DNA of 64,000 nucleotides, taken from Bacillota bacterium (GTDB lineage Bacteria; Bacillota_I; Bacilli_A; Erysipelotrichales; Coprobacillaceae). Shown here piece after piece: positions 3,288 through 21,012 of this stretch (position 1 is its first letter; every line of letters starts with the position of its first letter). Below the pieces are notes generated by a model. That model was not told the origin of the DNA and did not search any database. It saw only the letters and a program-made list of their open reading frames with translations. The stretch is from assembly GCA_030540195.1 (NCBI GenBank), contig JAUNWT010000001.1:28598-92597 (forward strand), given 5' to 3'. The translations under genes and the position numbers were made by a program.

Positions 3288-4456
3288 TGGATTTTGAAAA
3301 AATTGTAAATCCTATTGTAAAGGATATTCCACCAAGTGGAATTCGTAAATTCTTTGATCTTGCTAATCAAATGGAAGGTGTTATTTCTTTAGGGGTAGGG
3401 GAACCTGATTTTGCAACCCCTTGGACAATTAGAGAAGCTGCAATCTATTCAATTGAAAAAGGAAAAACATTCTATACTGCAAATCAAGGATTATTAGAAT
3501 TAAGAAAAGAAATTTGTAAATATCAAAAAAGAAAATTTGATTTAGATTATAAACCAGAACAATGTATCGTTACTGTTGGAGGATCTGAAGGAATCGATCT
3601 TGCCTTTAGAACGATCATTAATCCAGGTGATGAAGTCATTTTATTACAACCAAGCTATGTTGCTTATACACCAGGTGTTGCACTTGCTGGGGGAGTAGTA
3701 AGAAACATCACTTTAACAGAAGAAAATGAATTTAAATTAACACCTGAACTTTTAAAAGAAGCTATCAATGAAAAAACAAAAGCCATTCTTTTAAACTATC
3801 CAAGTAATCCAACAGGTGGATTCATGACAAAAGAAGACTATGAAAAATTGGTACCAATCTTTAAAGAATCAGGTATCATGATCATCACGGATGAAATCTA
3901 TGCAGAACTTTCCTATGAACATAAATTCTGTTCAATTGCCTCTTTTGATGAAATCAAAGACCAAGTTATTCTTGTTAGTGGTTTTTCAAAAGCTTATGCG
4001 ATGACAGGATGGCGTTTAGGTTATGTTCTTGCAAACGAATATCTTGTTAAAATGATGAAAAAGATTCATCAATATGTCATTATGTCAGCTCCAACATGTG
4101 CTCAATATGGAGCCATTGAAGCAATGAGACATTGTGATGAAGAAATTGAAAAAATGCGACAAGCTTATCTTGCAAGAAGAAATTTCTTGGTCAAAACATT
4201 TAATGAAATGGGACTTAAAACATTTACGCCACAAGGGGCCTTCTATGTTTTCCCATGTATTAAATCAACCGGTTTAACATCGGAACAATTCTGTGAAGAG
4301 TTATTAAACGATCAGTTAGTAGCCTGCGTGCCAGGAAGTGCTTTTGGTGAAGCCGGAGAAGGATATATTCGTGTTTCTTATGCTTATAGTTTAGAAGAAC
4401 TTAAAGCGGCAACTAAAAAAATTAGAAAATTCTTAGAAAACAAGGGAGTTATTTAA
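3287..4456 (+). CDS. PLP-dependent class I/II aminotransferase (alanine/aspartate transaminase-like)
   Basis: 389 aa. PLP-lysine region SGFSKAYAMTGWRLGY, plus NPTG and GVGEPDF motifs. Confidence 0.9.
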   Translation: MDFEKIVNPIVKDIPPSGIRKFFDLANQMEGVISLGVGEPDFATPWTIREAAIYSIEKGKTFYTANQGLLELRKEICKYQKRKFDLDYKPEQCIVTVGGSEGIDLAFRTIINPGDEVILLQPSYVAYTPGVALAGGVVRNITLTEENEFKLTPELLKEAINEKTKAILLNYPSNPTGGFMTKEDYEKLVPIFKESGIMIITDEIYAELSYEHKFCSIASFDEIKDQVILVSGFSKAYAMTGWRLGYVLANEYLVKMMKKIHQYVIMSAPTCAQYGAIEAMRHCDEEIEKMRQAYLARRNFLVKTFNEMGLKTFTPQGAFYVFPCIKSTGLTSEQFCEELLNDQLVACVPGSAFGEAGEGYIRVSYAYSLEELKAATKKIRKFLENKGVI

Positions 4457-4468: not shown

Positions 4469-4546
4469 GGCTTTAAAATAGATGCAAATTCATCATAAAA
4501 AGAAACAATTCCCTATAATAAAGATAAAGAAAAGGGGATGATTAAG

Positions 4547-5179
4547 ATGTTTGCAAGAAGTTATGAACAAATGACAGATGTATCTATTATGGAGGTAAAA
4601 ACATATTTATTAATTCATAGTGAAGGTGTTTATCAACAAGATATTTATGATTTAATGAATAAATGTTTAGATGTTTCTCAGTTAAAAAGAAAATTGAATA
4701 AAAGAAAAGATCTTCAATTATGGTTGTTTACAACAATTAAAAGATATATTGATTGTAGTTTATCTTATAATGAAATGGAATATCATCTTATTATGATGAA
4801 TAAACTTATTCACCAACATTTTCGTCCTTTGGTCGAATATAAATATAATTTATTTTATTATATTTTAGATAAAAGTAGTTTTAATCTAGAAACTTATTGT
4901 TTACTAAGACATTTACTTACTTTTAAAATGAATCAATTAAATAAAGTAATTTTAGGAATGACAAATTATAAAATGTTAAGTGATGAACAAACACATTATT
5001 ATGCAAGTCTTATTCTTTTGTTAGAAAAACAATACAAACAAGCTTATCTACACTTACCATTTGTCACATTAGATGAATCATTTAAACGCTTTGAAAAATC
5101 TCTTTATAATTATTCACCATATCGCTATGAAATGTTGTATCATAAAGACAAGACATATTCACTTAATTATGCAAGATAG
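4547..5179 (+). CDS. hypothetical protein, no recognisable domain
   Basis: ORF track 4538..5179. ATG 4547 is preferred because it sits 9 nt after AAAGGGG, whereas ATG 4538 abuts the SD. Soluble, Tyr/Leu/Lys-rich, visibly AT-richer than its neighbours. Confidence 0.5.
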   Translation: MFARSYEQMTDVSIMEVKTYLLIHSEGVYQQDIYDLMNKCLDVSQLKRKLNKRKDLQLWLFTTIKRYIDCSLSYNEMEYHLIMMNKLIHQHFRPLVEYKYNLFYYILDKSSFNLETYCLLRHLLTFKMNQLNKVILGMTNYKMLSDEQTHYYASLILLLEKQYKQAYLHLPFVTLDESFKRFEKSLYNYSPYRYEMLYHKDKTYSLNYAR

Positions 5180-5188
5180 GAGAAAATC

Positions 5189-6175
5189 ATGGACAGACTC
5201 TATTACACATATCTTATTATTAAAGAATCATTGGATTATATACCCGCTATTGAAATAAAAAGGCTACTTGAAGAAAAATATCAAATCAAAGTTGATGTTA
5301 AAACAGTTTATCAAGCGATTAGAAATATTAATGAATTATCAAACTATATTTATCAAAAAGAAATCATTAAAATGAAACATCGAAAAGGCTATAGTATTGA
5401 TGAAGAATTTTTCAATGATGGACAATTTCAATATCTATGGGACAGTGTGCTTTTCAACAATGACTTAAATGAAAATGAAGTAAATGCTTTACTTACAAAA
5501 TTACAAACCTTAAGTTCAAGTAAACAACTTTCACGTATTCAAAATCAACCAAGAAAAACACAACCAAGAAATTATGATTTACTTTTAAATATGACAACCG
5601 TCATTAAAGCAATTCATGAAAAGAAAAATATTTATTTTAAATATGTAAGTTATGAAATCAAAAGAAATAAGTTTGTAGAAATTGCGCATAATCATGGAAA
5701 TCATAAAGAAAATAATGAATTCTATATTATTTCTCCTTATAAACTAATTCAAAGAGATTCTAAATACTATGTTTTAGGTTATTTTAATCAACGCCCTGAT
5801 AAACTTTCTATTTATCGTCTTGATCGTATGCGTCTTGTAAGAAATCATAAAAGCCCTTTTGAAGAAGGGGAACAATTTGATTTAGAACAAGAAGTTGATC
5901 ATATAAATATGTATGTTTCAGGACAAAAAGATACGCTTGAAATTAGTTTTGATGAAGTGGTTTTAAGGGAAGTTATCGATCAATTTGGACAAGATCATCC
6001 AGTTAAAAAAGACTTTGAAAATCGTTATCATCTTACTATAGAAGATGTTCTTATCTCTGATGGGTTGATAGGATGGTTGATGATGTTACAAGATCATGTA
6101 AAAGTTATTAAACCTTATTCTTTACAAGAAGAAATGAAAAAAAGAATTGAAAAAATGTTTATACAATATAAATAG
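5189..6175 (+). CDS. WYL domain transcriptional regulator (wHTH-WYL-WCX architecture)
   Basis: 328 aa. N-terminal wHTH (IPAIEIKRLLEEKYQIKVDVKTVYQAIRNI). WYL core YIISPYKLIQRDSKYYVLGYFNQRPDKLSIYRLDRM. C-terminal extension GLIGWLMMLQDHVKVIKP. SD AGGAGAA. Confidence 0.8.
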   Translation: MDRLYYTYLIIKESLDYIPAIEIKRLLEEKYQIKVDVKTVYQAIRNINELSNYIYQKEIIKMKHRKGYSIDEEFFNDGQFQYLWDSVLFNNDLNENEVNALLTKLQTLSSSKQLSRIQNQPRKTQPRNYDLLLNMTTVIKAIHEKKNIYFKYVSYEIKRNKFVEIAHNHGNHKENNEFYIISPYKLIQRDSKYYVLGYFNQRPDKLSIYRLDRMRLVRNHKSPFEEGEQFDLEQEVDHINMYVSGQKDTLEISFDEVVLREVIDQFGQDHPVKKDFENRYHLTIEDVLISDGLIGWLMMLQDHVKVIKPYSLQEEMKKRIEKMFIQYK

Positions 6176-6195
6176 AGCTATCATTTGGATAGCTC
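6175..6195. terminator. Shared hairpin between convergent WYL and LysR genes
   Basis: GAGCTATC-ATTTG-GATAGCTC followed by TTTT. It overlaps the 3' end of the LysR CDS. Confidence 0.5.
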
Positions 6196-7053
6196 TTTTG
6201 TCTTTTTCCAATCAATATCTTTGATTTGTTTAATAATAGATTGAAATAAATTTCTTTTATCTTTTGGATAAATCGCATAATAACGAACATGGGCTTCTGG
6301 ATCAGTAATCGGTATTAGAATACGATTATCTTCTGCCTCTTCTCTTTGAATCGTGATATCACTTCTAAAATTAGGCAAAGCAGACATCTTTGTAAGTTCA
6401 TTAAAAACAGAAGGATCATCTTGAAATAAAAGATGTGATTCAGGAATCATACGTTGACAGACTTCATTCCAAAAACCAATTCGTGAAAGAAGTAAAACAC
6501 TTTGACCGTTTAAATCAGAAAAAGATATTTCTTTAAAAGGTGCTAAAGGATGTGCTGGAGGCACAGATAAATAAAGGGATTCATTTAAAAATTCTTGTGA
6601 GATATATTTTTTATCTTGTAAAGAATGATGTAAAACAATTAAAGAATAATCCCCTTTTTCTAATCCTTCAATTAATGTCTTTTCATCTTGAACAAGGGTA
6701 CTTTCAATTTGGGCTTCTGTATTATTTAATAAAGTATATTCAACACCCCATAAAGGAGCTGGTGCACAAGAACCAAAAGAAATATGATTTTGACTTAATT
6801 TTGTAAGTTCTTTAATCATTTCTTCTCGTCCATTAAGTAACTTTTGCGCAAATTCTACCGCAAGTTTTCCATTTTCATTCAGTTCAATTTTATTTTTCTT
6901 ACGATCAAATAAAGAAAGTCCTAAATCTTCTTCTAATCTTTGCATCGATCTTGTCAGTCCTGGTTGAGAAATCAACAATTCTTCAGCAGCTTTTGAAATG
7001 GTTTTATTTTTCGCAATGGATACAAGATGTTCAAGTTGGTTAAATTCAATCAT
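6181..7053 (-). CDS. LysR family transcriptional regulator
   Basis: ORF track 6181..7086. Start moved to ATG 7053-7051 (MIEFNQLEHLVSIAKNKTISKAAEELLISQPGLTRSMQRLE, a typical LTTR HTH) with GGAAGTGAG SD upstream. Confidence 0.9.
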   Translation of the reverse strand: MIEFNQLEHLVSIAKNKTISKAAEELLISQPGLTRSMQRLEEDLGLSLFDRKKNKIELNENGKLAVEFAQKLLNGREEMIKELTKLSQNHISFGSCAPAPLWGVEYTLLNNTEAQIESTLVQDEKTLIEGLEKGDYSLIVLHHSLQDKKYISQEFLNESLYLSVPPAHPLAPFKEISFSDLNGQSVLLLSRIGFWNEVCQRMIPESHLLFQDDPSVFNELTKMSALPNFRSDITIQREEAEDNRILIPITDPEAHVRYYAIYPKDKRNLFQSIIKQIKDIDWKKTKELSK

Positions 7054-7076
7054 AGTCTCACTTCCTTTTTCGTTAT

Positions 7077-7152
7077 TATAACACACTATGAGTTTGAGTT
7101 ATAGTGAGATAATTGAATGATAATGTACTTTTTTTAAAGCACATATTAAAAT
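7077..7152 (+). promoter_or_regulatory. Conserved operator+promoter module, copy A (divergent lysR/flavoprotein region)
   Basis: TATAAC (7077-7082), N15, GTTATA (7098-7103), 19 nt, ATGTAC (7123-7128), 18 nt, TAAAAT (7147-7152). Same layout as copies B-D except that the half-site gap is 15 nt rather than 5. Confidence 0.55.
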
Positions 7153-7182
7153 GAAAATAGTTAAGGAAAAAGGAGAAGAAAA

Positions 7183-7803
7183 ATGAAAGTGTTAATAATT
7201 AATGGAAGTCCTCGCCCAAGAGGAAATACAAAGATTGCCCTCGATGAAATGGTTAAAATCTTTGATCAAGAAGGTATTGAAAGTGAAATTGTGCATGTTG
7301 GAAATAAAGATATTCGAGGATGCATTGCCTGTATGTCATGTAAAACAAGATTAGGTCATTGCGTCTTTGATGATTGTGTCAATGAGATTTCTAAAAAGTT
7401 TGAAGAAGCAGATGGACTTGTGGTTGGAACACCGGTTTATTATGGTTCTGCCAATGCAACCTTAATTGCTTTTCTAACAAGACTGTTCTATAGTACGTCC
7501 TTTGATAAAACGATGAAAGTTGGGGCAAGTGCTATTGTCGCAAGACGTGGGGGAATTTCTTCAACTTATGATGAAATCAATAAATTCTTTGCTATTTCAG
7601 GAATGCCAATTGCTTCTTCACAATATTGGAATTCTATTCATGGAAGAGAAATAGGAGAAGCAAGCCAAGATGAAGAAGGATTACAAACAATGCGTGTTCT
7701 TGCTAGAAATATGTCATTTTTAATGAAATGTATACATGATGGTAAAGAAAAATATGGTTTACCAGAAAAAGAAGAATTTCATCGTACAAACTTTATTAGA
7801 TAA
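7183..7803 (+). CDS. Iron-sulfur flavoprotein (Isf)-like NAD(P)H-dependent FMN reductase family protein
   Basis: 206 aa. MKVLIINGSPRPRGNT flavodoxin-like N-terminus. Compact Cys motif CIACMSCKTRLGHC (CX2CX2CX5C) as in Isf proteins. Confidence 0.8.
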   Translation: MKVLIINGSPRPRGNTKIALDEMVKIFDQEGIESEIVHVGNKDIRGCIACMSCKTRLGHCVFDDCVNEISKKFEEADGLVVGTPVYYGSANATLIAFLTRLFYSTSFDKTMKVGASAIVARRGGISSTYDEINKFFAISGMPIASSQYWNSIHGREIGEASQDEEGLQTMRVLARNMSFLMKCIHDGKEKYGLPEKEEFHRTNFIR

Positions 7804-7812
7804 TAAAAAGAG

Positions 7813-8223
7813 CTAACGCTCTTTTTCGTTATCTAAATTAATTAAATTACTTACATAAGGCTTTTTACCACTTAAAACATCATCATAAAGATTTTGTTTC
7901 CAATCAATATAATCAATACTTTCTTCAAGTTGTTGAATCGTATCTTCAAGACTTTTTCTTTTTCTAGAAAGCATTTCTTGACGTATTTTAATTGTTGAAG
8001 GACCTTGTAAACAAAGAGCCAAGTATTCTTTCATTTCTTGAATACTAAAATCACATTTCTTTAAACAAGAAAGATCTTTGATCCAATTTACATCATGTTC
8101 ATCAAAAATACGACGATTATTTTTCTCTCTTTTTACATTAGGAACAAGTCCTTCATTACAATAATATTTTAAAGTTTGATAAGTCATATCAAGCTTACGA
8201 CAAACTTGCATCATTGTGTACAT
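7813..8223 (-). CDS. MerR family transcriptional regulator (NmlR/AdhR-like)
   Basis: ORF track 7813..8232. Start moved to ATG 8223-8221 (GAGGTGA SD). HTH MQVCRKLDMTYQTLKYYCNEGLV, then a coiled-coil dimerisation helix. Several Cys residues. Confidence 0.85.
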   Translation of the reverse strand: MYTMMQVCRKLDMTYQTLKYYCNEGLVPNVKREKNNRRIFDEHDVNWIKDLSCLKKCDFSIQEMKEYLALCLQGPSTIKIRQEMLSRKRKSLEDTIQQLEESIDYIDWKQNLYDDVLSGKKPYVSNLINLDNEKER

Positions 8224-8253
8224 AAAAATCACCTCAAAAAAATTATATTCTTC

Positions 8254-8284
8254 TTGACCGATAGTTACAACCGTAAATTATAAT
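8254..8284 (+). promoter_or_regulatory. MerR-type promoter with 19-bp spacer upstream of Fe-ADH
   Basis: TTGACC (8254-8259), 19 nt (GATAGTTACAACCGTAAAT), TATAAT (8279-8284). The over-long spacer is the hallmark of MerR-activated promoters. Confidence 0.6.
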
Positions 8285-8322
8285 CACATTGTAATAGATA
8301 AGAGATAAAGGGGGCTTATAAA

Positions 8323-9468
8323 ATGAAAACATTTAATTATTCTTATCCAGTAAAAGTTTATTTTGGAAAAGGAAGTGCAAAAGAAGCTTTTTCAAATGAA
8401 TTAAAGAAATATGGAAGTAAAGTTTTATTAGCTTATGGTGGAGGTTCTATTAAAAATAATGGAATCTATAATGAAATTGTTTCTTTATTAAAAGAAGAAA
8501 AGAAAGAAGTCATTGAATTTAATGGGATTATGTCTAATCCAACGTATAAAAAAGTACAAGAAGGAGTAGAGCTTGTAAAAAAAGAAAAAATTGATTTTAT
8601 TTTAGCTGTTGGTGGAGGAAGTGTCATTGATTGTTGTAAAGTCATTTCTAGCCAAGCAGTTATTGATGAAGATATTTGGGATTTAGAATATGTTCATGGT
8701 AAATTTCCAACAGAAGGGATTCCAATGGGTGCCATCGTGACAGCTTCAGGAACAGGGGCTGAAATGAATGGTGGGGCTGTTATTACTCATGAAGAAAAGA
8801 ATTGGAAAGGTGGTATCTTTGCTTCAACCGCTGACTTTGCAGTTCTTGATCCAGCTTATACCATGACAGTTCCAACAATGCAAGTATTATCAGGTGCCTT
8901 TGATACATTAAGTCATGCTTTAGAAACGTATTTAGGAAATTCAGATCAAGATAATGTTTCAGATGATGTTGCCTTAGCTATTATGAAAAATACCGTTGTG
9001 AATATGAGACGTTTATTAAAAGATATCAATGATGAACAAGCAAGAAGTAATTTGATGTGGGATTCAGCCATGGCTGAAAATGGTATTTTAAAATGTGGTC
9101 GTCAAACAGATTTCCAAGTGCATCAAATTGAACATCAATTAGGCGCTTTTACAGATTGTAACCATGGTCAAGGCTTAGCGGTTATTCAACCGGTTTATTG
9201 TTATCATATTTTAAATGATGCCAGAGAAAAATTAACACGTTTTGCAGAAGTTGTTTTTAATCAAAAAACAGCCGAAGAAGGTTTAGAAGCTCTTCAAAAC
9301 TTCATTAAAGAATGTCATTTACCAACAACTTTACCTGAATTAAAATCTAAAGTTGAAATCACAAATGATTTATTAAAGAAAGTAGCGGATACAACAAACC
9401 TTATCAAAACAAATCCGCGTACTCTTACAAAAGAAGAAGTTTATGATATTTTATTAGAATGCATGTAA
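8323..9468 (+). CDS. Iron-containing (group III) alcohol dehydrogenase, butanol dehydrogenase-like
   Basis: 381 aa. GGGSVIDCCK glycine motif and His-rich metal site region (HALETY, HQIEHQLGAFTDCNHGQG). Confidence 0.9.
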   Translation: MKTFNYSYPVKVYFGKGSAKEAFSNELKKYGSKVLLAYGGGSIKNNGIYNEIVSLLKEEKKEVIEFNGIMSNPTYKKVQEGVELVKKEKIDFILAVGGGSVIDCCKVISSQAVIDEDIWDLEYVHGKFPTEGIPMGAIVTASGTGAEMNGGAVITHEEKNWKGGIFASTADFAVLDPAYTMTVPTMQVLSGAFDTLSHALETYLGNSDQDNVSDDVALAIMKNTVVNMRRLLKDINDEQARSNLMWDSAMAENGILKCGRQTDFQVHQIEHQLGAFTDCNHGQGLAVIQPVYCYHILNDAREKLTRFAEVVFNQKTAEEGLEALQNFIKECHLPTTLPELKSKVEITNDLLKKVADTTNLIKTNPRTLTKEEVYDILLECM

Positions 9469-9493
9469 AAAGCTATCTCGGATAGCTTTTTTT
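9468..9493 (+). terminator. Rho-independent terminator after Fe-ADH
   Basis: AGCTATC-TCG-GATAGCT hairpin followed by T7. Confidence 0.7.
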
Positions 9494-9494
9494 G

Positions 9495-9560
9495 TATAAC
9501 TGTCAGTTATAGTGAGATGATTTATTGATATTGTACTTTTGTTTTTTTGAAATCTACAAT
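9495..9560 (+). promoter_or_regulatory. Conserved operator+promoter module, copy B
   Basis: TATAACTGTCAGTTATA (9495-9511), 19 nt, TTGTAC (9531-9536), 18 nt, TACAAT (9555-9560). Confidence 0.6.
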
Positions 9561-9583
9561 AAAGATGTAAGGAGGAACAAGAT

Positions 9584-10432
9584 ATGGAATATATAACTTT
9601 GACTAATGGTTATCAACTACCGATGTTAGGATACGGTACTTTACATATACCTCCTAAACAAACAAAAGAATGTGTTTTAAAAGCCTTTGAAGCAGGTTAT
9701 CGTTTGATTGATACAGCCGCTTCTTATCAAAATGAAAGAGAAATAGGAAAAGCAATCAAAGAATCGAAGCTTAAAAGAGAAGAAATCTATTTGACAACAA
9801 AGGTTTGGGTTCAAGATGCTGGTTATGAAAATACGCTACAGGCATTTCATCAATCATTAGAAAATCTAGGGGTCGATTATTTAGATCTTTATTTAATTCA
9901 TCAACCTTATGGTGATTATTATGGTTCATGGAAAGCTATGGAAGAACTTTATCAACAAGGAAAAATCAAAGCGATTGGTGTCTGCAACTTTTCACCAGAA
10001 AGACTCATGGATCTTTACATGAATAGTTCCATTCATCCCATGATCAATCAACTTGAATACCATCCTTTCTATCAACAAAAAAATCAAAAATGTGTCTTAA
10101 AACAATGTGATTGTCTCTTAGAAGCTTGGGGTCCTTTAAATGAAGGACAACGTGATATCTTTCATCATCCAATGTTATTAGATATTGCGAAGAAACATCA
10201 AAAATCAGTTTCACAAATTATTCTAAGATGGCATTTAGAAAATCACATTATTGCCATTCCTAAAACCACACATTTAAATCGTATGAAAGAAAATATAGAT
10301 ATTTTTGATTTTCAGTTAGATGAAGAAGATAAAAAACAAATAGAACTACTTGATTTAGGTTATAGTGAAATTATTGATCATCAAAATTATATGACCGCAA
10401 AATGGCTTAATAAATATAAAATACATGATTAA
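9584..10432 (+). CDS. Aldo/keto reductase (AKR paralog 1)
   Basis: 282 aa. [34 protein letters not shown] signatures. SD AAGGAGG. Confidence 0.9.
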   Translation: MEYITLTNGYQLPMLGYGTLHIPPKQTKECVLKAFEAGYRLIDTAASYQNEREIGKAIKESKLKREEIYLTTKVWVQDAGYENTLQAFHQSLENLGVDYLDLYLIHQPYGDYYGSWKAMEELYQQGKIKAIGVCNFSPERLMDLYMNSSIHPMINQLEYHPFYQQKNQKCVLKQCDCLLEAWGPLNEGQRDIFHHPMLLDIAKKHQKSVSQIILRWHLENHIIAIPKTTHLNRMKENIDIFDFQLDEEDKKQIELLDLGYSEIIDHQNYMTAKWLNKYKIHD

Positions 10433-10446
10433 AAGGAGAAAGGAAT

Positions 10447-11211
10447 ATGTTATTTTACTTTACAGGTACAGGGAATAGTTTGTATGTGGCGAGACAAATT
10501 GAAGAAAAGCCTATCAGTATTCCGCAAGTCTTACATCAAGAAAACTTAAATTTTAAAGATGAAAAAATTGGAATCGTTTATCCTGTTTATGCCGGAGAAG
10601 CACCTAAAATTGTCTTAGAGTTTTTAGAAAAAGCAACATTTGAAACAGATTATTTTTATTTGATTTTAACTTATGGAAAAGATGTCACAGATGCTCCTGA
10701 ATGCATAGCGCGTTTACTTGAAGAAAAAGGAAAACACGTTAATTATATTCATTCTATTTTAATGGTAGATAATTACTTGCCATCCTTTGATATGAATGAA
10801 CAAAGAGCCATGAATAAAAACGTTGAACAACAAATTCAACAAGCACTTCAAGATATCCAAAACAAAAAAGAAGAAATTCCTGAAGCAACACAAGCAGGGA
10901 GAGATTTCCATGCTTCTGCCAAAGAAATCTTTGCGAAAAATCCAGAACTCATTAATGGTGAACAAATTACGGTAACCGATCAATGTGTAGGTTGTGGTAT
11001 TTGTACAAAGGTTTGTCCAAGAGGACTCTTCTATGTTGAAAATAAAAAAGCGAAGAGAAAACAAAATACCTGTGAATTTTGTTTAGCGTGTGCACAAAAC
11101 TGTCCATCTAAAGCCATTATCACAAAATTGAAAGATGCCAATCCTAATGCCCGTTATAGACATGAAAAAGTAAGTCTAAAAGATATTATTGAAGCAAATC
11201 AACAAGTATAA
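10447..11211 (+). CDS. Flavodoxin-like domain fused to 2x[4Fe-4S] ferredoxin domain (EFR1-type)
   Basis: 254 aa. MLFYFTGTGNSLYVA flavodoxin-type N-terminus. CVGCGICTKVCP and CEFCLACAQNCP ferredoxin motifs. Confidence 0.75.
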   Translation: MLFYFTGTGNSLYVARQIEEKPISIPQVLHQENLNFKDEKIGIVYPVYAGEAPKIVLEFLEKATFETDYFYLILTYGKDVTDAPECIARLLEEKGKHVNYIHSILMVDNYLPSFDMNEQRAMNKNVEQQIQQALQDIQNKKEEIPEATQAGRDFHASAKEIFAKNPELINGEQITVTDQCVGCGICTKVCPRGLFYVENKKAKRKQNTCEFCLACAQNCPSKAIITKLKDANPNARYRHEKVSLKDIIEANQQV

Positions 11212-11272
11212 CTGACAGTTATACTAACATGCACTATTTATATTGTACATTTATAGAATTTAAAACTAAAAT
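11207..11272 (+). promoter_or_regulatory. Conserved operator+promoter module, copy C
   Basis: TATAACTGACAGTTATA (11207-11223, overlapping the TAA stop of the upstream gene), 19 nt, TTGTAC (11243-11248), 18 nt, TAAAAT (11267-11272). No terminator precedes it. Confidence 0.6.
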
Positions 11273-11298
11273 AAAGATAGAAATTGGAGGAGATAATA

Positions 11299-12139
11299 AT
11301 GAAAACTTTTGAATTAAATAATAAACAAACAATCCCAGCAGTAGGATTTGGGGTCTTCATGATTCCTAATGATGGACCTACTTACGAAGCAACTTTAGCT
11401 GCTTTAAAAGCAGGATATCGTCATATTGATACAGCTGCTGGTTATTGTAATGAAAGTGATGTTGGAAAAGCCATTAAAGATAGTGGTATTGATCGTTCAG
11501 AAATCTTTATTACTTCTAAATTATGGTTACAAGATTATGGTTATGAAAATGCGAAAAAAGGTATTGAAACTTCTATGAAATTATTAGGAGTTGATTATAT
11601 TGATCTTTATTTATTACATCAACCATATGGTGATTATTTAGGAGCTTGGAAAGCTTTAGAAGAAGCTTATCAAGCAGGTAAAATCAAATCTATTGGTATT
11701 TCTAATATTACTGTGAACTTATGGAATAAATTTAAAGATGGTATGACAGTAATGCCAGCAGTCAACCAAGTAGAATTTAACCCATTTGTGCAACAAAAAG
11801 AATTAAGAAAAGTGATGGCTGAAAACGATATTCGTTTAGAAGCATGGTATCCATTAGGACATGGAAATAAAGATTTATTAGAAAATGAAACAATCGTTTC
11901 ATTAGCTAAAAAATATAATAAAAATGCCGGTCAAATTATCTTAAGATGGATTTATCAAGAAGGCGTTATTTCTTTACCTAAATCTACAAATGAAGAAAGA
12001 ATGAAAGGAAACATTGATATCTTTGATTTTGAATTAACAGATGAAGAAATGAAAGCAATGCAAGCCTTAGATACAAACAAACCATCTCATAATCCTGAAG
12101 ATCCTGCCAACGAAACACGTTTAATGGGATTAAAAATTC

Positions 12140-12147
<8 letters not shown>
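11299..12147 (+). CDS. Aldo/keto reductase (AKR paralog 2)
   Basis: ORF track 11284..12147. ATG 11299 preferred (GGAGGAG SD upstream). GYRHIDTAAGYCNE, IDLYLLHQP, QIILRW motifs. Confidence 0.9.
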
Positions 12148-13836
<1,689 letters not shown>

Positions 13837-13845
13837 TAAAAAAGA

Positions 13846-13874
13846 TTGTAACCGTTTTAATTTTGTGATATTAT
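13846..13874 (+). promoter_or_regulatory. Promoter of bgl operon with overlapping cre-like site
   Basis: TTGTAA (13846-13851), 17 nt, extended -10 TGATATTAT (13866-13874). TGTAACCGTTTTAA (13847-13860) matches cre consensus TGWAANCGNTNWCA at 13 of 14 positions. Confidence 0.5.
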
Positions 13875-13889
13875 GTTCGAGTAGTTTAT

Positions 13890-13970
13890 AGGATAGTGAT
13901 TGTTTAAGTACAAGCTAAACCTGTTTATTGCCACCCTTTTTAAGTGCGCAATAAATAGGTTTTTATTTTT
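13890..13970 (+). promoter_or_regulatory. RAT (ribonucleic antiterminator) element overlapping an intrinsic terminator
   Basis: GGATAGTGATTGTTTAAGTACAAGCTAAACCT resembles the BglG/LicT RAT consensus (GGATTGTNACTG...GCAGGCAAAACCT). Its 3' end overlaps hairpin CCTGTTTATTGC (13920-13931) / GCAATAAATAGG (13948-13959), which is followed by a T-run. Confidence 0.7.
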
Positions 13971-13982
13971 GGAGGGGTGATT

Positions 13983-14822
13983 ATGGAAATAAGCAAAGTT
14001 TTAAACAACAATGTAGCTGTCGTTATTGAAAATAACGAAGAAAAGATTGTGATGGGTCGAGGAATCTGTTTTAAAAAGAAAACAGGAGATATAATTGAAC
14101 CAGAAAAAATAGATAAAGTTTTTTATTTACAAAACCAAGAAGTCTTAAGTCGTTTTAAAGAACTTGTGGTGGATATTCCTTTAGAATATTTAGAAATCGG
14201 TGAAGAAATTATGGATGAAGCAAGATTAAGTTTAGGAAAAGCTTTAAATGATAATATCTTTATTTCCATGGTTGATCATATTTATACCGCTGTTGTTAGA
14301 GCGAAAGATGATATTTTAGTGAAGAATGCTTTATTATGGGATATTCAAAGATTTTATAAAGAAGAATATCAAATAGGGAAAAAAGCTCTTGAGATTATTG
14401 AAAAGAAAACAGGAGTTCTTTTACCAAATGATGAAGCAGGATTTATTGCCTTACATATTGTCAATGGACAATTAGATGAAGATGTTCATGATATGTATGA
14501 AATTACGAAGATCATGCAAGAAATCGAAAATATTGTTCGTTATCACTTCAAGATAGAATTTAATGAAGAAAGTGCTTATTACTATCGTTTTATTACCCAT
14601 TTGAAATTCTTTGCACAACGTTTAGTTGAACATAAAAAACAAAACAAACAAGAAGATGATTTGTTGGAAGTGGTTCAAGTAAAATATGCCAATGCTTATC
14701 AATGTGTCGAAAAAATTGCGATGTACATAAAAAATCAATATAACTATGAACTTTATGACGAAGAAAAACTTTATTTAACGATCCATATACATCGTGTAGT
14801 TTATCTTGGAAATAGTCATTAA
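13983..14822 (+). CDS. licT: BglG/LicT family PRD-containing transcription antiterminator
   Basis: ORF track 13977..14822. ATG 13983 preferred (GGAGGGG SD). CAT domain MEISKVLNNNVAVVIENNEEKIVMGRGICF followed by two PRD domains. Confidence 0.9.
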   Translation: MEISKVLNNNVAVVIENNEEKIVMGRGICFKKKTGDIIEPEKIDKVFYLQNQEVLSRFKELVVDIPLEYLEIGEEIMDEARLSLGKALNDNIFISMVDHIYTAVVRAKDDILVKNALLWDIQRFYKEEYQIGKKALEIIEKKTGVLLPNDEAGFIALHIVNGQLDEDVHDMYEITKIMQEIENIVRYHFKIEFNEESAYYYRFITHLKFFAQRLVEHKKQNKQEDDLLEVVQVKYANAYQCVEKIAMYIKNQYNYELYDEEKLYLTIHIHRVVYLGNSH

Positions 14823-14888
14823 TTGGATGGTGACATTAAGTTGGCCAAACCTTCAAATTTCAATACTTTAGAAAGATGGAGGAAAATT

Positions 14889-16772
14889 ATGAGTAAGTAT
14901 GAAAATTTAGCCAAAGAAATTTTGGAAAATGTTGGTGGAAAGGAAAACATCAACAGCTTAACACATTGTGTTACAAGATTACGTTTTCGTTTAAAAGACG
15001 AATCAAAAGCCAATGATGAAGCATTAAAAAATAATCCAGGTGTTGTCACTGTGATGAAATCAGCAGGACAATATCAAGTTGTTATTGGAAATCATGTTCC
15101 TTTAGTATACGCAGACGTCTGTGAACTTGCCGGTATTAGTAATGGAACTCAACAAGAAGAAGATGAAGCACCTCAAGGACTTTTTAATAAGTTGATTGAT
15201 GTTATTTCAGGATGTTTCCAACCTATTTTAGGACCATTATGTGCAGCTGGGATCATTAAAGGATTAAATGCTTTATTAGTCTTTATTTTAGGATCAAGTT
15301 TCAATAATAGTGGAACATATATAATTTTAAATGCCATTGGTGATTCTATTTTTAACTTTTTACCAATTATTTTAGGATATACCGCAGCTAAAAAATTCAA
15401 TGTCAATGTTGTTGTCGGAATGATCATTGGAGCAACACTTTGTTATCCAACAATTCAAACAGATACATTGTCAGCTGCAGGAAAAGCAATTGGAACATTA
15501 CCATTGATTGGATCTTATTATACAAAATTCATTGGTATTCCATTTGTTTCAGGTAACTATACAAGTACTGTTGTACCTGTTATCTGTATTGTTGCTTTAG
15601 CGGCTCAAATTCAAAAAATTGCGAAGAAATTTGTACCTGAAATGTTACAAAACTTCTTTGTGCCATTCTTTGTTTTAATTATTTCACTTCCAATTGGTTT
15701 ACTTGTTATTGGACCAGTTGTAAGTTTATTAACAACAGTTTTATCAAATATGTTTGCTGGACTTTATGCTTTTTCACCAATCGTAACAGCTTTTGTCATT
15801 GGAGCATTATGGCAATGTTTAGTTATCTTTGGTTTACATTGGGCACTCGTTCCAATGGCGATGGTCAATATTGGAAACTTAGGATATGATACAATTTTAC
15901 CAGGTATGTTAGGAACAACATTTGCGGCAACAGGTGTTCTTGCAGCGATGTATTTAAAATTAAAAGATGAAAACAAAAAAGCACTTGCAATCCCAGGTGT
16001 GATTTCTGCATTCTGTGGGGTAACAGAACCAGCTATTTATGGTTTCTTATTACCTGAAAAAACACCATTTGTTTTCTCTTGTATCGGTGGTGCTGTTGGT
16101 GGTGCCATTATGGGAACAGTTGCGGCTAAACAATATGTTATTGGTGGACTTGGAATCTTTAGTGTTGTAAACTTCATTTCACCAAAAGGAGATGCAACTG
16201 GTATGATCGTTTCATTAATTGCGGGAGCTGTTTCATTAGTTGTTGGTTTTGTTTTAACAATTATTTTCTATAAAACAAATGATCAACAAGTTGAAAATAA
16301 AGAAGCAACAAAATTAGAAAAAGAAACAATTTTATCGCCAATTAAAGGAGAAGTAAAACCAATCGAAGAATCAAGCGATGCTGCTTTTGCATCAGGTGCT
16401 TTAGGAAAAGGTGTTGTTATTTTACCAGAAGAAGGAAAAGTATATGCTCCTGTGACTGGTACGATTACTGTTTTATTCCCAAGTTTACATGCAATTGGTA
16501 TTACCAGTGATGCAGGTGTTGAATTACTTATTCACATTGGTATTAATACCGTACAACTTAATGGTGAAGGCTTTACTGCCCATATTAAACAAGGTGATCA
16601 AATTAAACAAGGTCAATTACTTGTTGAATTTGATATGAATAAAATTAAAGAAGCCGGTTATTCTTTAGAAACTCCTGTTTTAGTCACAAATTATGCAGAT
16701 TTAAAAGAAGTTAAAAATACAAAGGCTTCATCTGTACAATTACAAGAAACTTTAATAGAAGTTAAATACTAA
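14889..16772 (+). CDS. PTS beta-glucoside-family transporter, EIIBCA
   Basis: ORF track 14823..16772. ATG 14889 preferred (GGAGG SD at 14878-14882; typical N-terminus MSKYENLAKEILENVGGKENI). EIIB Cys motif LTHCVTRLRF, multi-TM EIIC, C-terminal EIIA (LIHIGINTV). Confidence 0.9.
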   Translation: MSKYENLAKEILENVGGKENINSLTHCVTRLRFRLKDESKANDEALKNNPGVVTVMKSAGQYQVVIGNHVPLVYADVCELAGISNGTQQEEDEAPQGLFNKLIDVISGCFQPILGPLCAAGIIKGLNALLVFILGSSFNNSGTYIILNAIGDSIFNFLPIILGYTAAKKFNVNVVVGMIIGATLCYPTIQTDTLSAAGKAIGTLPLIGSYYTKFIGIPFVSGNYTSTVVPVICIVALAAQIQKIAKKFVPEMLQNFFVPFFVLIISLPIGLLVIGPVVSLLTTVLSNMFAGLYAFSPIVTAFVIGALWQCLVIFGLHWALVPMAMVNIGNLGYDTILPGMLGTTFAATGVLAAMYLKLKDENKKALAIPGVISAFCGVTEPAIYGFLLPEKTPFVFSCIGGAVGGAIMGTVAAKQYVIGGLGIFSVVNFISPKGDATGMIVSLIAGAVSLVVGFVLTIIFYKTNDQQVENKEATKLEKETILSPIKGEVKPIEESSDAAFASGALGKGVVILPEEGKVYAPVTGTITVLFPSLHAIGITSDAGVELLIHIGINTVQLNGEGFTAHIKQGDQIKQGQLLVEFDMNKIKEAGYSLETPVLVTNYADLKEVKNTKASSVQLQETLIEVKY

Positions 16773-16796
16773 AAATGAAGGTATTGGAGGGATCAT

Positions 16797-17495
16797 ATGA
16801 ATAGACCTTATGTCATATGCCATATGTTGCAATCAATAGATGGTAAAATTGCGGGTGGTTTCTTTAGAGAAAAACAAACATTAGAACTTGCGAAGATTTA
16901 TAGTGACATTTCTAAAGACTATAACGGAGATGCAATCATTTATGGTACAACAACCGCTAAAGAAATGTTTTCAAGTTCTAAAACAACACCTGTTTTAAAT
17001 CAAAAACCTATTCAAAAAATAGACTATATTTATAAAGATGATAAAAAGAAATGGATCGTGGTGATTGATCCTCAAGGTCAAATTTCTTTTGATCAATCGG
17101 TTTATCAAAATCCAAGACTTAAAGATAAAAATTTAATCGTAATTCTTACAGAAAATATTTCCAGACAATACCTAGAAACATTAAAGTCATTAAATATTTC
17201 TTATTTATTTACTGGTAAAGAAGAAATAGATTTAAAACTTGCTTTAGAAAAGCTTTATGATTTATTTTCTATTAAAAAGCTTTTATTACAAGGTGGCGGA
17301 ATTACGAATACCTATTTTATTAAAGAAGATTTAATAGATGAATTAAGTCTTGTTGTTTCTCCTGTTGTATCAGGAGAAGAAAAACAACCTAATATTTTTG
17401 AAGATTGTCATGAATATATAGGACAAACATTTGATTTAAAACAAAGTGATCTCTTAAGAAAATCAGGTTTATATTTAAAATATGTAAGAAAATAG
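16797..17495 (+). CDS. RibD C-terminal domain / dihydrofolate-reductase-like family protein
   Basis: 232 aa. N-terminus MNRPYVICHMLQSIDGKIAG and LLLQGGGITN motif typical of RibD_C-type reductases. SD GGAGGG. Confidence 0.7.
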   Translation: MNRPYVICHMLQSIDGKIAGGFFREKQTLELAKIYSDISKDYNGDAIIYGTTTAKEMFSSSKTTPVLNQKPIQKIDYIYKDDKKKWIVVIDPQGQISFDQSVYQNPRLKDKNLIVILTENISRQYLETLKSLNISYLFTGKEEIDLKLALEKLYDLFSIKKLLLQGGGITNTYFIKEDLIDELSLVVSPVVSGEEKQPNIFEDCHEYIGQTFDLKQSDLLRKSGLYLKYVRK

Positions 17496-17518
17496 TGGGA
17501 CTCAGGTCTCACTTTTTT
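17495..17518 (+). terminator. Rho-independent terminator after bgl operon
   Basis: GTGGGAC-TCAG-GTCTCAC hairpin (one G-U pair) followed by T6. Confidence 0.65.
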
Positions 17519-17520
17519 AG

Positions 17521-17586
17521 TATAACTGTCAGTTATACATGGATGTATTATTGATATTGTACATTTAAAAAAGTAATAGCTAAAAT
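17521..17586 (+). promoter_or_regulatory. Conserved operator+promoter module, copy D
   Basis: TATAACTGTCAGTTATA (17521-17537), 19 nt, TTGTAC (17557-17562), 18 nt, TAAAAT (17581-17586). Confidence 0.6.
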
Positions 17587-17608
17587 GGAATTAGAAAGGG
17601 GGATTGAT

Positions 17609-18196
17609 GTGAGAAAAGTAATTGATGTAGGGATGATGATTTTATTATTACTTTTAATGGCTTTTCCATTTACTGGACAAGATATTCACATTTTTTTGGG
17701 AATAATCATGCTTATTTTCTTTATTATTCATCATTATTTAAATAAAAGATGGTATTTGAGTTTATTTAAAGGTAAGAAAACAAAAATAAAAATACTATTT
17801 ATGATCATTAATAGTTTATTACTTATAAGTATATTGGGTGTTGCGCTCAGTGGTTTAACACTTGCTGGATATGTGCCTATCATGTCCTATTTTCTAGCAA
17901 GAAAGATGCATTTAGTATGTTCTTATTGGAGTTATTTACTCATGGGATTACATGTGGGCTTGCATCTACAAGTTACAAAGATGATTAAAAATCAAATCAT
18001 TGTTTATGGAATAATGCTTATAGGAATTATTTTATTTACGAAAAATCAAATACTTATTTATTTGTTGAATATGTCTGATTTTTTATATGTAAGTAATCAA
18101 ATGAATATCGTTATTTATATGTTTGAATATTTGATGATCTTTATTTTATTTGTATTATTCATGAATGTCATCATAAAGGAGATGAAGAAGAAATGA
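17609..18196 (+). CDS. DUF4405-like polytopic membrane protein (cytochrome-b-like, His-rich TM helices)
   Basis: ORF track 17585..18196. ATG 17585 lies inside the predicted -10 box, so in-frame GTG 17609 (AAAGGGGG SD 5-6 nt upstream) is preferred. TM His residues in DIHIFLG, IIHHYLNKRW, KMHLVCSYW, GLHVGLH. Confidence 0.6.
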   Translation: MRKVIDVGMMILLLLLMAFPFTGQDIHIFLGIIMLIFFIIHHYLNKRWYLSLFKGKKTKIKILFMIINSLLLISILGVALSGLTLAGYVPIMSYFLARKMHLVCSYWSYLLMGLHVGLHLQVTKMIKNQIIVYGIMLIGIILFTKNQILIYLLNMSDFLYVSNQMNIVIYMFEYLMIFILFVLFMNVIIKEMKKK

Positions 18197-18831
18197 AAAA
18201 GAAAATATTAATTGTACTTGCAGTTGTTTGCATTATTGTAGCGGGTGCGGGTTATTATTTTTATCGCACACAAAGAAATGTAAGTGTTGGTTTAAATAAA
18301 CGTATTCAAGATGAAAATGGTAAAAAAGGAAAGACTTCTTTAGAAAGCTCTAAAGTATTAGTGGTTTATTTTTCTAATGGGGGAAATACTCAAAAACTTG
18401 CAAAAGAAATTTATAATCAAGTTGGAGGAGATTTTAGACAAATTAAACCAGTAAAAGCTTATCCTAAAGGAAATAAACTTTATGATTATACAAAAAATGA
18501 ACAGGAAAAAAATGGGCGACCAAAACTAAAAGACTTAAATATTGATATAAGTCACTATGATACGATTTTTATTGGTTATCCTATTTGGTGGTATACCTAT
18601 CCACAAATTATTTTGAGTTTCTTCGATCAATATGATTTAAGTAATAAAACAATTATTCCTTTTGTGACACATGGTGGTAGTGGTATGTCAGGAACAAAAG
18701 AAGATATGGAAGAATATTTAAAAGATAAAAGTGTAACTGTAAAAGAAGGACTTGCTGTAAGTCGAACAGATATTGAAAAGAGTCAAAAGGAAACAGTTGA
18801 AAATTGGTTAAAGGAGCTTGGTTATGAATGA
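18193..18831 (+). CDS. Flavodoxin-family protein with N-terminal signal-anchor helix
   Basis: 212 aa. MKKK plus a hydrophobic helix (ILIVLAVVCIIVAGAGYYFY), a linker, then flavodoxin fold (KVLVVYFSNGGNTQKLAKEI, IGYPIWWYTYP). Start overlaps the upstream stop. Confidence 0.75.
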   Translation: MKKKILIVLAVVCIIVAGAGYYFYRTQRNVSVGLNKRIQDENGKKGKTSLESSKVLVVYFSNGGNTQKLAKEIYNQVGGDFRQIKPVKAYPKGNKLYDYTKNEQEKNGRPKLKDLNIDISHYDTIFIGYPIWWYTYPQIILSFFDQYDLSNKTIIPFVTHGGSGMSGTKEDMEEYLKDKSVTVKEGLAVSRTDIEKSQKETVENWLKELGYE

Positions 18832-19717
18832 GTCTACTAAAATAAATGATATTTTAAACAATCTGTTATTTAAAGATATAGGACAATTTCTATTTCCAAC
18901 AGATTTTTATTCAATCACAAATACCATGACTTTAAAAGATGTAGATCATCTACTTCCTTATCATAGTCATATTGAAGTAGATACAACTTTAGAAGTATTA
19001 GAATATTTAGAAAAGCAAAGAAAACAAGGAAATCAAGTATTCTATGATATCTATACAGAAAAAGAAAAACAAGCAGATCCTTCTAAAAGAAAAACAGGAT
19101 TATTCTTTTTCAAAGGAAAGAAAAATGCACCTTTTGCCATCGTTAATGCAGGTGGTGGTTTTAGCTATGTTGGTTCGATTCATGAAAGTATGCCTCATGC
19201 CCTTTATTTATCAAAACAAGGCTACAATGGTTTTGCCTTACAATATCGTACAGGTGGAGCGGATGTCGCATGTGTTGATCTTGCAAGAGCAATTGAATTT
19301 ATCTTTGAACATGCCAAAGAATTAGAAATTGATACAAATTGTTATTCTTTATGGGGTGGTTCTGCCGGAGCAAGAATGGCTGCTTATTTAGGAAGCTATG
19401 GCACTATTTCTTTTGGTGGAAAATATTTACCAAAACCAGGAACAGTAGTTATGCAATATACGGGACATAGTGATTATACAAAAAATGAACCACCAACTTT
19501 TGTATGTGTTGGTGAAAATGATGGGATCGCTTCTTGGCGTGTTATGGAAAGAAGAATTCATATTTTAAAACATCAAGGGGTTGATGTTGAATTCCACAAA
19601 TATCCTTCTTTAGGACATGGTTTTGGTTTAGGTATTCATACAAGTGCTAAAGGATGGATCAATGATGCCATTCATTTTTGGCAAAAACAAATAGATAAAG
19701 GAGAAGATGAAAAATGA
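18824..19717 (+). CDS. Alpha/beta hydrolase (esterase/lipase-like)
   Basis: ORF track 18818..19717. ATG 18824 preferred (AAGGAG SD 7 nt upstream). Nucleophile elbow WGGSAGA (G-x-S-x-G) and C-terminal LGHGFG. Confidence 0.8.
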   Translation: MNESTKINDILNNLLFKDIGQFLFPTDFYSITNTMTLKDVDHLLPYHSHIEVDTTLEVLEYLEKQRKQGNQVFYDIYTEKEKQADPSKRKTGLFFFKGKKNAPFAIVNAGGGFSYVGSIHESMPHALYLSKQGYNGFALQYRTGGADVACVDLARAIEFIFEHAKELEIDTNCYSLWGGSAGARMAAYLGSYGTISFGGKYLPKPGTVVMQYTGHSDYTKNEPPTFVCVGENDGIASWRVMERRIHILKHQGVDVEFHKYPSLGHGFGLGIHTSAKGWINDAIHFWQKQIDKGEDEK

Positions 19718-20274
19718 GAAAGAATTTTGGAGCACAACCTTATTTATATCCACAACCAGTGATGATTATTGGAACATATGATGAAAATGGCAAAGCAAAT
19801 GCGATGAATGCTGCGTGGGGAGGAATTGTTGGTAGAGATGAAATCATGATCGATTTATCTTCACATAAAACAACAAAGAACTTAGAAGTTACCAAAGCAT
19901 TTACTGTAAGTGTGGCAGATACAAAACATTTAGTTGCTTGTGATTATGTTGGGGTAGAATCTGCCAACAATTGTGAAAATAAAATGGAAAAGGCTGGATT
20001 TACAACAGTTAAAAGTGAATTTGTGAATGCACCTATTATCAATGAACTTCCTCTTACTTTAGAATGTGAATTAGTAAAAGTAATTGATGGAAGTAAGTAT
20101 TTAGGACGTATTGTTAATGTAAGTATTGATGAAGAAGTTTTAGGAGAAGATGGTAAGTTAAGTTTAGAAAAATTTAAACCTATTACTTTTGATACGATCC
20201 ATGGACAATATATTGAATTAGGAAAATGTGTAGGAAAAGCATTTCATGATGGTTTACAATTAAAAAATAAATAG
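19714..20274 (+). CDS. Flavin reductase family protein (Flavin_Reduct domain)
   Basis: 186 aa. ATGA overlap with the upstream gene. PVMIIGTYDENGKANAMNAAWGG is typical of the FMN-binding split-barrel flavin reductase family. No signal peptide. Confidence 0.8.
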   Translation: MRKNFGAQPYLYPQPVMIIGTYDENGKANAMNAAWGGIVGRDEIMIDLSSHKTTKNLEVTKAFTVSVADTKHLVACDYVGVESANNCENKMEKAGFTTVKSEFVNAPIINELPLTLECELVKVIDGSKYLGRIVNVSIDEEVLGEDGKLSLEKFKPITFDTIHGQYIELGKCVGKAFHDGLQLKNK

Positions 20275-20286
20275 GAGATTAATTCT

Positions 20287-21009: not shown

Positions 21010-21012
21010 CAT

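Follow-up and report, generated by a model that had tools for sequence, protein, structure and literature searches.

Introduction

Transcriptional regulators of the LysR type (LTTRs) are generally modelled as tetramers with a high-affinity recognition site and alternative positions at an activation-binding site (ABS), between which the protein shifts under the influence of an inducer (PMC11739112). Here we analyse a 64,000-nucleotide stretch of a Faecalibacillus-like gut bacterium of the Coprobacillaceae, phylum Bacillota (contig JAUNWT010000001.1 of assembly GCA_030540195.1, positions 28,598 to 92,597), called the window below and numbered from its first letter, in which one short operator-plus-promoter module stands before four transcription units. 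We consider it quite probable, judging from the DNA and protein sequences compared here, that the four sites are copies of a single cassette recognised by the LTTR encoded beside the first of them, at 6181-7053.

The described regulator closest in box type is CcpC, a Firmicute LTTR of Bacillus subtilis and Listeria monocytogenes (citB, citZ), which requires both an ATAA/TTAT dyad centred at -66 and a promoter-proximal TATT half-dyad at -27 to -33 for binding (PMC8514465). The module has the same type of box (ATAA-N7-TTAT at about -64, with a proximal tA-TT-GTAC element), and in Acidaminobacter it precedes an aconitate hydratase gene, as the CcpC site does at citB. Only the operator type is shared, however: the LTTR, no orthologue of CcpC, reaches 45 bits, in the helix-turn-helix (HTH) region only, against the cutoff of 400 of NCBIfam model NF058504. 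CcpC targets are TCA-cycle genes, whereas those found here encode carbonyl reductases and flavoproteins; the proximal element of the module, which spans about -38 to -31, has an invariant GTAC at its end, unlike the CcpC half-dyad at -27 to -33; and CcpC is chiefly a citrate-relieved repressor, whereas the module appears to serve activation.

BenM/CatM, CbnR and ClcR are proteobacterial regulators of aromatic catabolism with boxes of the ATAC-N7-GTAT type. The predicted layout of our locus resembles theirs in its divergent regulator gene, T-N11-A recognition site near -65, candidate weaker ABS over the -35, and proposed negative autoregulation and sliding-dimer mechanism (PMC11739112 and general knowledge), and the PDB sequences that best match the N-terminal part of the LTTR include BenM, CatM and CbnR. 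Regulators of this kind usually control one or two operons each, whereas in our locus a single regulator seems to act on four promoters or more through an invariant cassette. With one LTTR apparently set over several dispersed reductase operons, the locus resembles OxyR, which is the top PDB sequence match of the LTTR (E 6.7e-13), and to MexT, which activates oxidoreductase genes under electrophilic or disulfide stress. It differs from both in having no conserved sensor cysteine, in operator sequence and in its strictly anaerobic gut and rumen Firmicute hosts.

Four copies of one module in the window

The original prediction, made from the letters of the window, had described four sites of shared architecture with invariant spacing, and a pattern search confirmed all of their coordinates. 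The pattern GTTATA-N19-(T/A)TGTAC-N18-TA(A/C)AAT occurs in four exact copies, all on the + strand and without mismatch (7098-7152, 9506-9560, 11218-11272 and 17532-17586), where 0.00 are expected from 100 dinucleotide-preserving shuffles. From GTTATA half-sites starting at 7098, 9506, 11218 and 17532 it is exactly 19 nt to the (T/A)TGTAC boxes at 7123, 9531, 11243 and 17557, and from these exactly 18 nt to the TAAAAT or TACAAT -10 elements at 7147, 9555, 11267 and 17581. Three copies carry the perfect 17-bp palindrome TATAACTGnCAGTTATA (at 9495, 11207 and 17521; 0 expected), and TATAACTGNCAGTTATA with at most one mismatch likewise gives three matches against 0 expected. A loose palindrome with up to two mismatches has no significance by itself (13 matches in the window against 7.1 expected), so that only the exact or extended pattern is significant. 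A position weight matrix (PWM) derived from related sites picked out the same four sites and nothing else in the 64 kb. A ribosome-binding site and a start codon follow on the same strand, 20-35 nt beyond the end of each copy. The proposed regulator, the modules and their units are as follows.

6181-7053, - strand: LTTR gene, 290 aa, ATG at 7053; proposed regulator of the four modules
7087-7152, + strand: module copy A; degenerate dyad TATGAGTTTGAGTTATA at 7087-7103, ATGTAC at 7123-7128, -10 TAAAAT at 7147-7152; PWM 36 bits
7183-7803, + strand: copy A target gene, NADPH-dependent FMN reductase-like (Isf-like) flavoprotein containing a Cys cluster; Pfam FMN_red E 1.2e-26
9495-9560, + strand: module copy B; perfect dyad TATAACTGTCAGTTATA at 9495-9511, TTGTAC at 9531-9536, -10 TACAAT at 9555-9560; PWM 56 bits
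9584-11211, + strand: operon B, DkgA-like aldo-keto reductase (AKR) at 9584-10432 and EFR1-family flavodoxin-ferredoxin at 10447-11211
11207-11272, + strand: module copy C; perfect dyad TATAACTGACAGTTATA at 11207-11223, TTGTAC at 11243-11248, -10 TAAAAT at 11267-11272; PWM 51 bits
11284-13836, + strand: operon C, three DkgA-like AKRs (11284-12147, 12140-12988, 12991-13836); Pfam Aldo_ket_red E 1e-45 to 1e-55
17521-17586, + strand: module copy D; perfect dyad TATAACTGTCAGTTATA at 17521-17537, TTGTAC at 17557-17562, -10 TAAAAT at 17581-17586; PWM 46 bits
17585-20922, + strand: operon D, by Pfam a DUF4405 membrane protein (17585), Flavodoxin_4 (18193), alpha/beta hydrolase (18818), Flavin_Reduct (19714) and Flavodoxin_4 (20287)

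The downstream layout of four transcription units with 11 genes, also part of that prediction, is borne out, and Pfam and NCBIfam confirm the gene calls. An independent repeat search grouped the four sites as one 79-nt family of 61-77% identity. Since the AKR genes are paralogous repeats and a longer stretch, GTTATAGTGAGAT, is common to copies A and B, the copies could be pictured as remnants of promoter duplication during AKR duplication, or as a small repeat element, with no common regulator. We find this hardly credible: the copies precede unrelated genes (FMN_red, AKR, DUF4405); they agree only at particular positions and in spacing and have otherwise diverged; and those positions are also conserved in loci of Erysipelotrichia and Clostridia whose flanks are unrelated. 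Intervening positions drift freely between sites, which is the signature of a binding site and not of a repeat element; a repeat or mobile-element origin was rejected on this position-specific conservation across classes. A riboswitch or other RNA element in the leaders was also dropped, since no Rfam family matched within 6000-21500 of the window.

Linkage of the module to LTTR genes

The protein encoded at 6181-7053 has the make-up of its family, an HTH domain (PF00126; Pfam HTH_1 E 2.5e-16, residues 4-62) and a substrate-binding domain (PF03466; LysR_substrate E 4e-12, partial, residues 119-191) in about 300 aa, and reached no equivalog cutoff in NCBIfam. As predicted, it is the single LysR gene of the window, where no second LTTR was found. 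Its more than 1000 relatives are named in Coprobacillaceae, Erysipelotrichaceae and [Clostridium] saccharogumia. Orthologues with 37-98% identity adjoin the same module in other genomes and share the recognition helix ISQP(G/A)L(T/S)(R/K)S (ISQPgLTRSmqrLE) together with motifs such as SVPPAHPLA; the C-terminal half is conserved among them as well.

The association was examined from the protein side in 86 loci fetched by LTTR protein similarity alone, six by exact protein look-up (L001, L005 and L021-L024) and 80 by a metagenome scan with the LTTR alignment (L025-L104). In all six loci of the first set (52-82% identity) the intergenic region carries the module on its target side, divergent from the LTTR gene, and the LTTR lies beside AKR, FMN_red, Flavin_Reduct, EFR1 or hydrolase operons. 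In the metagenome set (40-98% LTTR identity) a PWM match above 18 bits, on the divergent strand and at most 90 bp from the LTTR start, was present in 75 of 80 loci; four of the five exceptions still have a copy, cut off by a contig edge in one, lacking 1 nt in another and reading CCGTAC in two, and the fifth is a true deletion. The association thus persists down to 40% protein identity, and the operons of the distant LTTR groups hold SDR, AKR, hydrolase and FMN_red genes, or AKR, Flavin_Reduct and FMN_red genes. A divergent arrangement of LTTR and target with overlapping predicted promoters was seen in about 80 of the 86 loci.

From the motif side, 185,579 genomes, one per species (596 Gb), were scanned with the strict pattern TATAAC-N5-GTTATA-N19-WTGTAC-N18-TANAAT (22 fixed bases). 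It gave 17 matches in 14 stretches, where we estimate a chance expectation of about one or fewer even at 65% A+T. The hosts are Faecalibacillus faecis, F. intestinalis, three metagenome-assembled genomes of Erysipelotrichales (four stretches), five of Ruminococcus (six stretches), Ca. Pseudoramibacter fermentans and Acidaminobacter hydrogenoformans, and represent two classes and no fewer than four orders of Bacillota. Fifteen of the 17 matches lie upstream of genes for AKRs, YqhD-like iron-containing alcohol dehydrogenases (Fe-ADH), Flavin_Reduct, Flavodoxin_4/DUF4405 or hydrolases, with an unannotated 216-aa open reading frame (ORF) first and the Fe-ADH second in L012. The remaining two precede an aconitate hydratase gene (L010) and, at a distance of about 500 nt, an ORF that we read by eye from its sequence as carboxymuconolactone-decarboxylase-like (L019). 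Five of the 14 stretches (L008, L009, L011, L012 and L013) have an orthologous LTTR (37-95% identity) beside the module.

A sixth stretch, L010 of A. hydrogenoformans (NZ_FMWL01000023.1), has a non-orthologous LTTR beside the module; these six are the stretches whose 8 kb extend far enough to show such a neighbour. The match itself (2875-2940, - strand) stands before the gene for aconitate hydratase (830 bits), and another copy, a weaker one that ends at 5543 (- strand), is placed between a lactonase-like/IDH-like pair and the LTTR gene, whose product is 23% identical to that of the window. This LTTR resembles a CcpC-like TCA regulator with the same operator architecture, and the cassette is apparently shared by a broader clade of Firmicute LTTRs.

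Two other regulator genes lie within 2 kb of copy A, and a 17-bp palindrome with 6-bp arms could suit any dimeric HTH protein.

4538-5179: unannotated 213-aa partner of the WYL/WCX-domain protein
5189-6175: WYL/WCX-domain protein, directly downstream of lysR
7813-8232, - strand: NmlR-like MerR gene; NCBIfam NmlR E 5.9e-19, below cutoff
8254-8284, + strand: predicted Fe-ADH promoter, TTGACC-19 nt-TATAAT with a TTAC-N4-GTAA dyad in the spacer
8323-9468, + strand: Fe-ADH gene, YqhD-like, between units A and B

The palindrome might accordingly be bound by the MerR protein, the WYL protein or an unlinked regulator, with the LysR neighbourhood incidental. MerR-family proteins, however, act at dyads inside 19-20-bp spacers, an arrangement found at 8254-8284, whereas the module has an 18-bp spacer without a conserved dyad and carries its dyad about 30 bp upstream of the -35. 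The MerR gene thus has its own promoter before Fe-ADH, and both neighbours are restricted to the closest relatives: neither was seen in L021-L024, and MerR is absent even from the F. faecis locus L008. The LTTR, by contrast, is adjacent in about 80 of 86 independent loci, and no other regulator gene was consistently linked to the module across the loci examined. We accordingly judge another factor highly unlikely. The MerR protein was rejected as module regulator for its own 19-bp-spacer promoter and its absence from most related loci, and the WYL protein for its lack of conserved linkage beyond close relatives.

The earlier LysR-regulon reading is in this way supported computationally from protein to motif and from motif to protein, by the geometry described below and by the absence of another linked regulator.

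Operator architecture and proposed mode of control

Site conservation was assessed on 26 non-redundant sites that had been fetched by protein and are hence unbiased for the motif. Their consensus reads TATg..ttt.a.TTATA / g.a..aT....tAttG.tA / tTGTAC / N18 / TA.Aat. Invariant in it are the dyad's TAT and TTATA, both spacings (19 nt and 18 nt), the T at +7, the A just before the box and the GTAC core. Positions on which the pattern search had set no condition are conserved all the same: AT follows the dyad at +6/+7 (1.8-2.0 bits), and T/TA precedes the box.

The dyad has the form TAT(A/G)nn-N5-nTTATA, and its ideal version, TATAAC-N5-GTTATA, equals an ATAA-N7-TTAT or T-N11-A box; the original prediction had noted the T-N11-A fit, which is found as T3-N11-A15. 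Its position also holds on recomputation, the dyad centre falling at about -64 if transcription is assumed to start 7 nt past the -10. On that assumption the sites have the T-N11-A dyad near -65 that is characteristic of LTTR recognition sites. Sites adjacent to LTTR genes have a weaker left arm (TATGCR), and distal sites are perfect palindromes. From the dyad centre to the centre of TGTACA it is 31.5 bp, or three helical turns, which places both on the same DNA face. The aT at +6/+7 and the tAttG.tA-tTGTAC between dyad and -10 fit an ABS, with no clear second dyad definable: candidates for a second, proximal dyad (ATG-N9-CAT in Ruminococcus, GTA-N3-TAC around the box) gave nothing consistent across taxa.

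Taken as a -35, the TTGTAC form of the box is poor, matching TTGACA at 3/6 positions, and the -10 elements (TAAAAT, TACAAT, TATAAT) are near consensus. Ordinary sigma-70 -35 boxes are best conserved in their TTG. The module differs in this respect, since the GTAC core carries 1.8-2.0 bits per position and several sites have A, C or CC where the first T would stand. An invariant GTAC behind a variable leading T therefore makes (T/A)TGTAC look like a regulator contact over a weak -35, probably the promoter-proximal LysR contact too, and not like a plain -35.

These features suggest a mechanism in which an LTTR tetramer would occupy the dyad, as its high-affinity site, and the proximal tATTGrTA-tTGTAC region on the same face of the DNA. 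Binding of a co-inducer would shift the proximal dimer and allow RNA polymerase to use the weak -35 with its 18-bp spacer, a switch that would turn on the four transcription units and their 11 genes. At copy A, where the dyad is predicted to lie in the spacer/-35 region of the lysR promoter, the regulator would also repress its own gene. The promoters look activator-dependent because of their poor -35 and fixed 18-bp spacer.

The adjacent LysR protein could instead bind the modules mainly as a repressor, in the manner of CcpC at citB, with occupancy of the dyad and of GTAC/-35 blocking polymerase until an inducer relieves it. CcpC has the same box type and represses citB through a dyad at -66 and a half-dyad near -30 (PMC8514465); the conserved proximal contact of the module overlaps the -35, and with near-consensus -10s the promoters might fire unaided. 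Against repression, a -35 of only 3/6 matches and a suboptimal, fixed 18-bp spacer, both conserved across classes, are typical of activator-dependent promoters, and most LTTRs with a site at -65 activate the divergent target (PMC11739112 and general knowledge). Repression as the main mode is in our view unlikely, if conceivable.

Several points weigh against an inducible, activator-driven regulon of this LTTR, or narrow it. The direction of control is deduced from the poor -35, the 18-bp spacer and the habit of the family, and CcpC, the closest relative in box type, acts mainly as a repressor (PMC8514465). The same module adjoins the non-orthologous, 23% identical LTTR in Acidaminobacter, before aconitase; the box is hence not unique to the present orthologous group, and cross-talk is possible. 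The count of four promoters covers the 64-kb window. The inducer class is guessed from the enzyme content, and a thiol-sensor idea for it was abandoned, as the candidate residue for sensing electrophiles, the Cys of a GSCAP motif at the start of the effector domain, is Ile or Leu in P0066, P0113 and P0117. Literature searches found no paper on this regulator; a paper on an Acetobacterium woodii lysR-adhE locus was set aside as concerning an unrelated situation.

The predicted lysR promoter and copy A

The lysR gene (- strand) and the FMN_red gene (+ strand) are divergent and 129 bp apart, and between them a promoter element for lysR is predicted next to copy A.

7075-7083, - strand: predicted lysR extended -10, TGTTATAAT, read from sequence; correctly placed for ATG 7053 with the ribosome-binding site AAGGAAG

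Copy A had been described as a split palindrome. It is instead an in-register degenerate dyad, TATGAG-TTTGA-GTTATA, at 7087-7103, and the TATAAC at 7077-7082 that had been counted as its left half is the reverse complement of part of TGTTATAAT. In keeping with this, the string ATTATAACAC is kept just 5' of copy A in all Faecalibacillus-type loci, including that of F. intestinalis, whose copy A orthologue is a perfect dyad, TATAACTTTTGGTTATA. In more distant genera the intergenic region is shorter, and the right half-site (ATTATAgca) is itself the predicted lysR extended -10, as reverse complement TGCTATAAT. The lysR -10 either abuts the dyad (window, F. intestinalis, L012) or falls inside it (L021-L023 and the 45% identity group). 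We infer that the copy A dyad lies within the spacer/-35 region of the predicted lysR promoter, the classical layout of negative autoregulation.

The surroundings of the module vary between strains. In L037 (~3960-4000) a clean deletion extends from the predicted -10 of lysR to that of module A, and in F. intestinalis (L011, 3016-3435) modules A and C stand in tandem, 354 bp apart, with only an FMN_red stub between them. Gene content between module copies thus varies at strain level, and the repeated cassettes of ~66 bp may serve as recombination points. In [Clostridium] saccharogumia (L001, 17087-17425, - strand) the module lies 5' of an AKR operon, and the first start codon comes only after a leader of ~270 nt, far in excess of the 20-35 nt elsewhere.

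Proposed target units and neighbouring genes

Homologues of the copy A gene lie within LTTR-linked operons of L022, L024, L061 and L087. Copy B, which like copy D follows a terminator-like hairpin, is kept in F. faecis (L008) and in L016. The AKR of its operon (Pfam Aldo_ket_red E 1.3e-51) has DkgA as best NCBIfam match, at 255 bits and below cutoff, and the flavodoxin-ferredoxin scores 192 bits with the EFR1 ferredoxin model, above the cutoff of 75. The observation that the copy C palindrome lies over the stop codon of the upstream gene is correct, as the stop of 10447-11211 is inside it; orthologous copies of C are found in L005, L008, L011, L016 and L017. The first AKR of operon C likely starts at ATG 11299 rather than 11284.

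Copy D stands just 3' of a terminator hairpin at 17494-17513, and a terminator-like hairpin at 20978-21006 follows the last gene of operon D. Gene sets similar to that of operon D occur behind a module in Ruminococcus (L018) and Erysipelotrichales (L020). The listed DUF4405 start, ATG 17585, overlaps the predicted -10 (17581-17586); an in-frame GTG at 17609, preceded by AAAGGGGG, is the likely start. Both Flavodoxin_4 proteins (genes at 18193 and 20287) have N-terminal hydrophobic segments resembling signal anchors, and their genes are apparently co-transcribed with that of the multi-pass DUF4405 membrane protein, the same trio being present behind the module in Ruminococcus L018. The three could form a membrane-associated or extracytoplasmic electron-transfer unit.

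The MerR gene and Fe-ADH make up a cassette of their own; F. faecis SNUG30370 (L008) lacks it and has a truncated FMN_red gene. Apparently the MerR protein controls Fe-ADH through the promoter with the 19-bp spacer. This part of the cluster recalls AdhR/NmlR systems, in which MerR-family regulators of carbonyl/nitrosative stress govern alcohol dehydrogenases, in that an NmlR-like MerR gene is present and its target class, Fe-ADH, is under the LysR module in other taxa: loci of Ruminococcus and Erysipelotrichaceae have a homologous Fe-ADH behind the module instead. AdhR and NmlR differ in regulator family, in an operator inside the spacer and in a promoter of their own, and are not the factor for the four modules. 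In Faecalibacillus relatives the WYL pair keeps its synteny, a typical trait of pairs with a WYL regulator, and it seems to have nothing to do with the module.

Discussion

The products under the four modules are predicted to be NAD(P)H-dependent carbonyl reductases, in the form of four DkgA-like AKRs, for which DkgA gives the best score, together with flavin and Fe-S electron carriers and reductases. Most likely, and as our best guess, they would reduce or detoxify reactive carbonyls, quinones or xenobiotics on induction, one such compound acting as co-inducer. A functional analogy is offered by Escherichia coli, where the yqhD-dkgA operon is aldehyde-inducible under YqhC, a regulator of the AraC type. 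A YqhD-type Fe-ADH and a DkgA-type AKR lie directly behind the module in L009, L012, L014 and L015 (Ruminococcus and Erysipelotrichaceae), which supports a role in aldehyde or carbonyl detoxification; the best NCBIfam model of this Fe-ADH class is PRK15138, which we take to be the YqhD family. The analogy with YqhC is of function only.

In its construction the regulon is conventional and its architecture textbook; it is uncharacterised and widespread. It leaves the understanding of LysR mechanism unchanged, and its value lies in the breadth of conservation, in the invariant GTAC cassette and in the handle that it gives on carbonyl and xenobiotic reductases of gut anaerobes. It offers a testable pair of cis-element and regulator for widespread carbonyl reductases and flavoproteins of abundant gut and rumen Firmicutes, the regulation of which is essentially unstudied. 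Short, portable and of fixed spacing, the cassette is usable for predicting regulon members in metagenomes and for finding inducers by reporter fusions, and is possibly an inducible promoter tool for genetically difficult anaerobes.

A broader and rather doubtful proposition is that this LTTR family, from Erysipelotrichia to several orders of gut and rumen Clostridia, might act as a master switch for inducible carbonyl, quinone or xenobiotic reduction in strict anaerobes, sensing the compounds directly, with the invariant GTAC of an unusual fixed cassette replacing the normal -35 as a joint contact for regulator and polymerase. If that were true, the AKR, SDR and Fe-ADH enzymes under its control may reduce drugs as well as ketones or aldehydes from the diet, and if the inducers were dietary or drug carbonyls, an environmental signal would be tied to microbial xenobiotic reduction.

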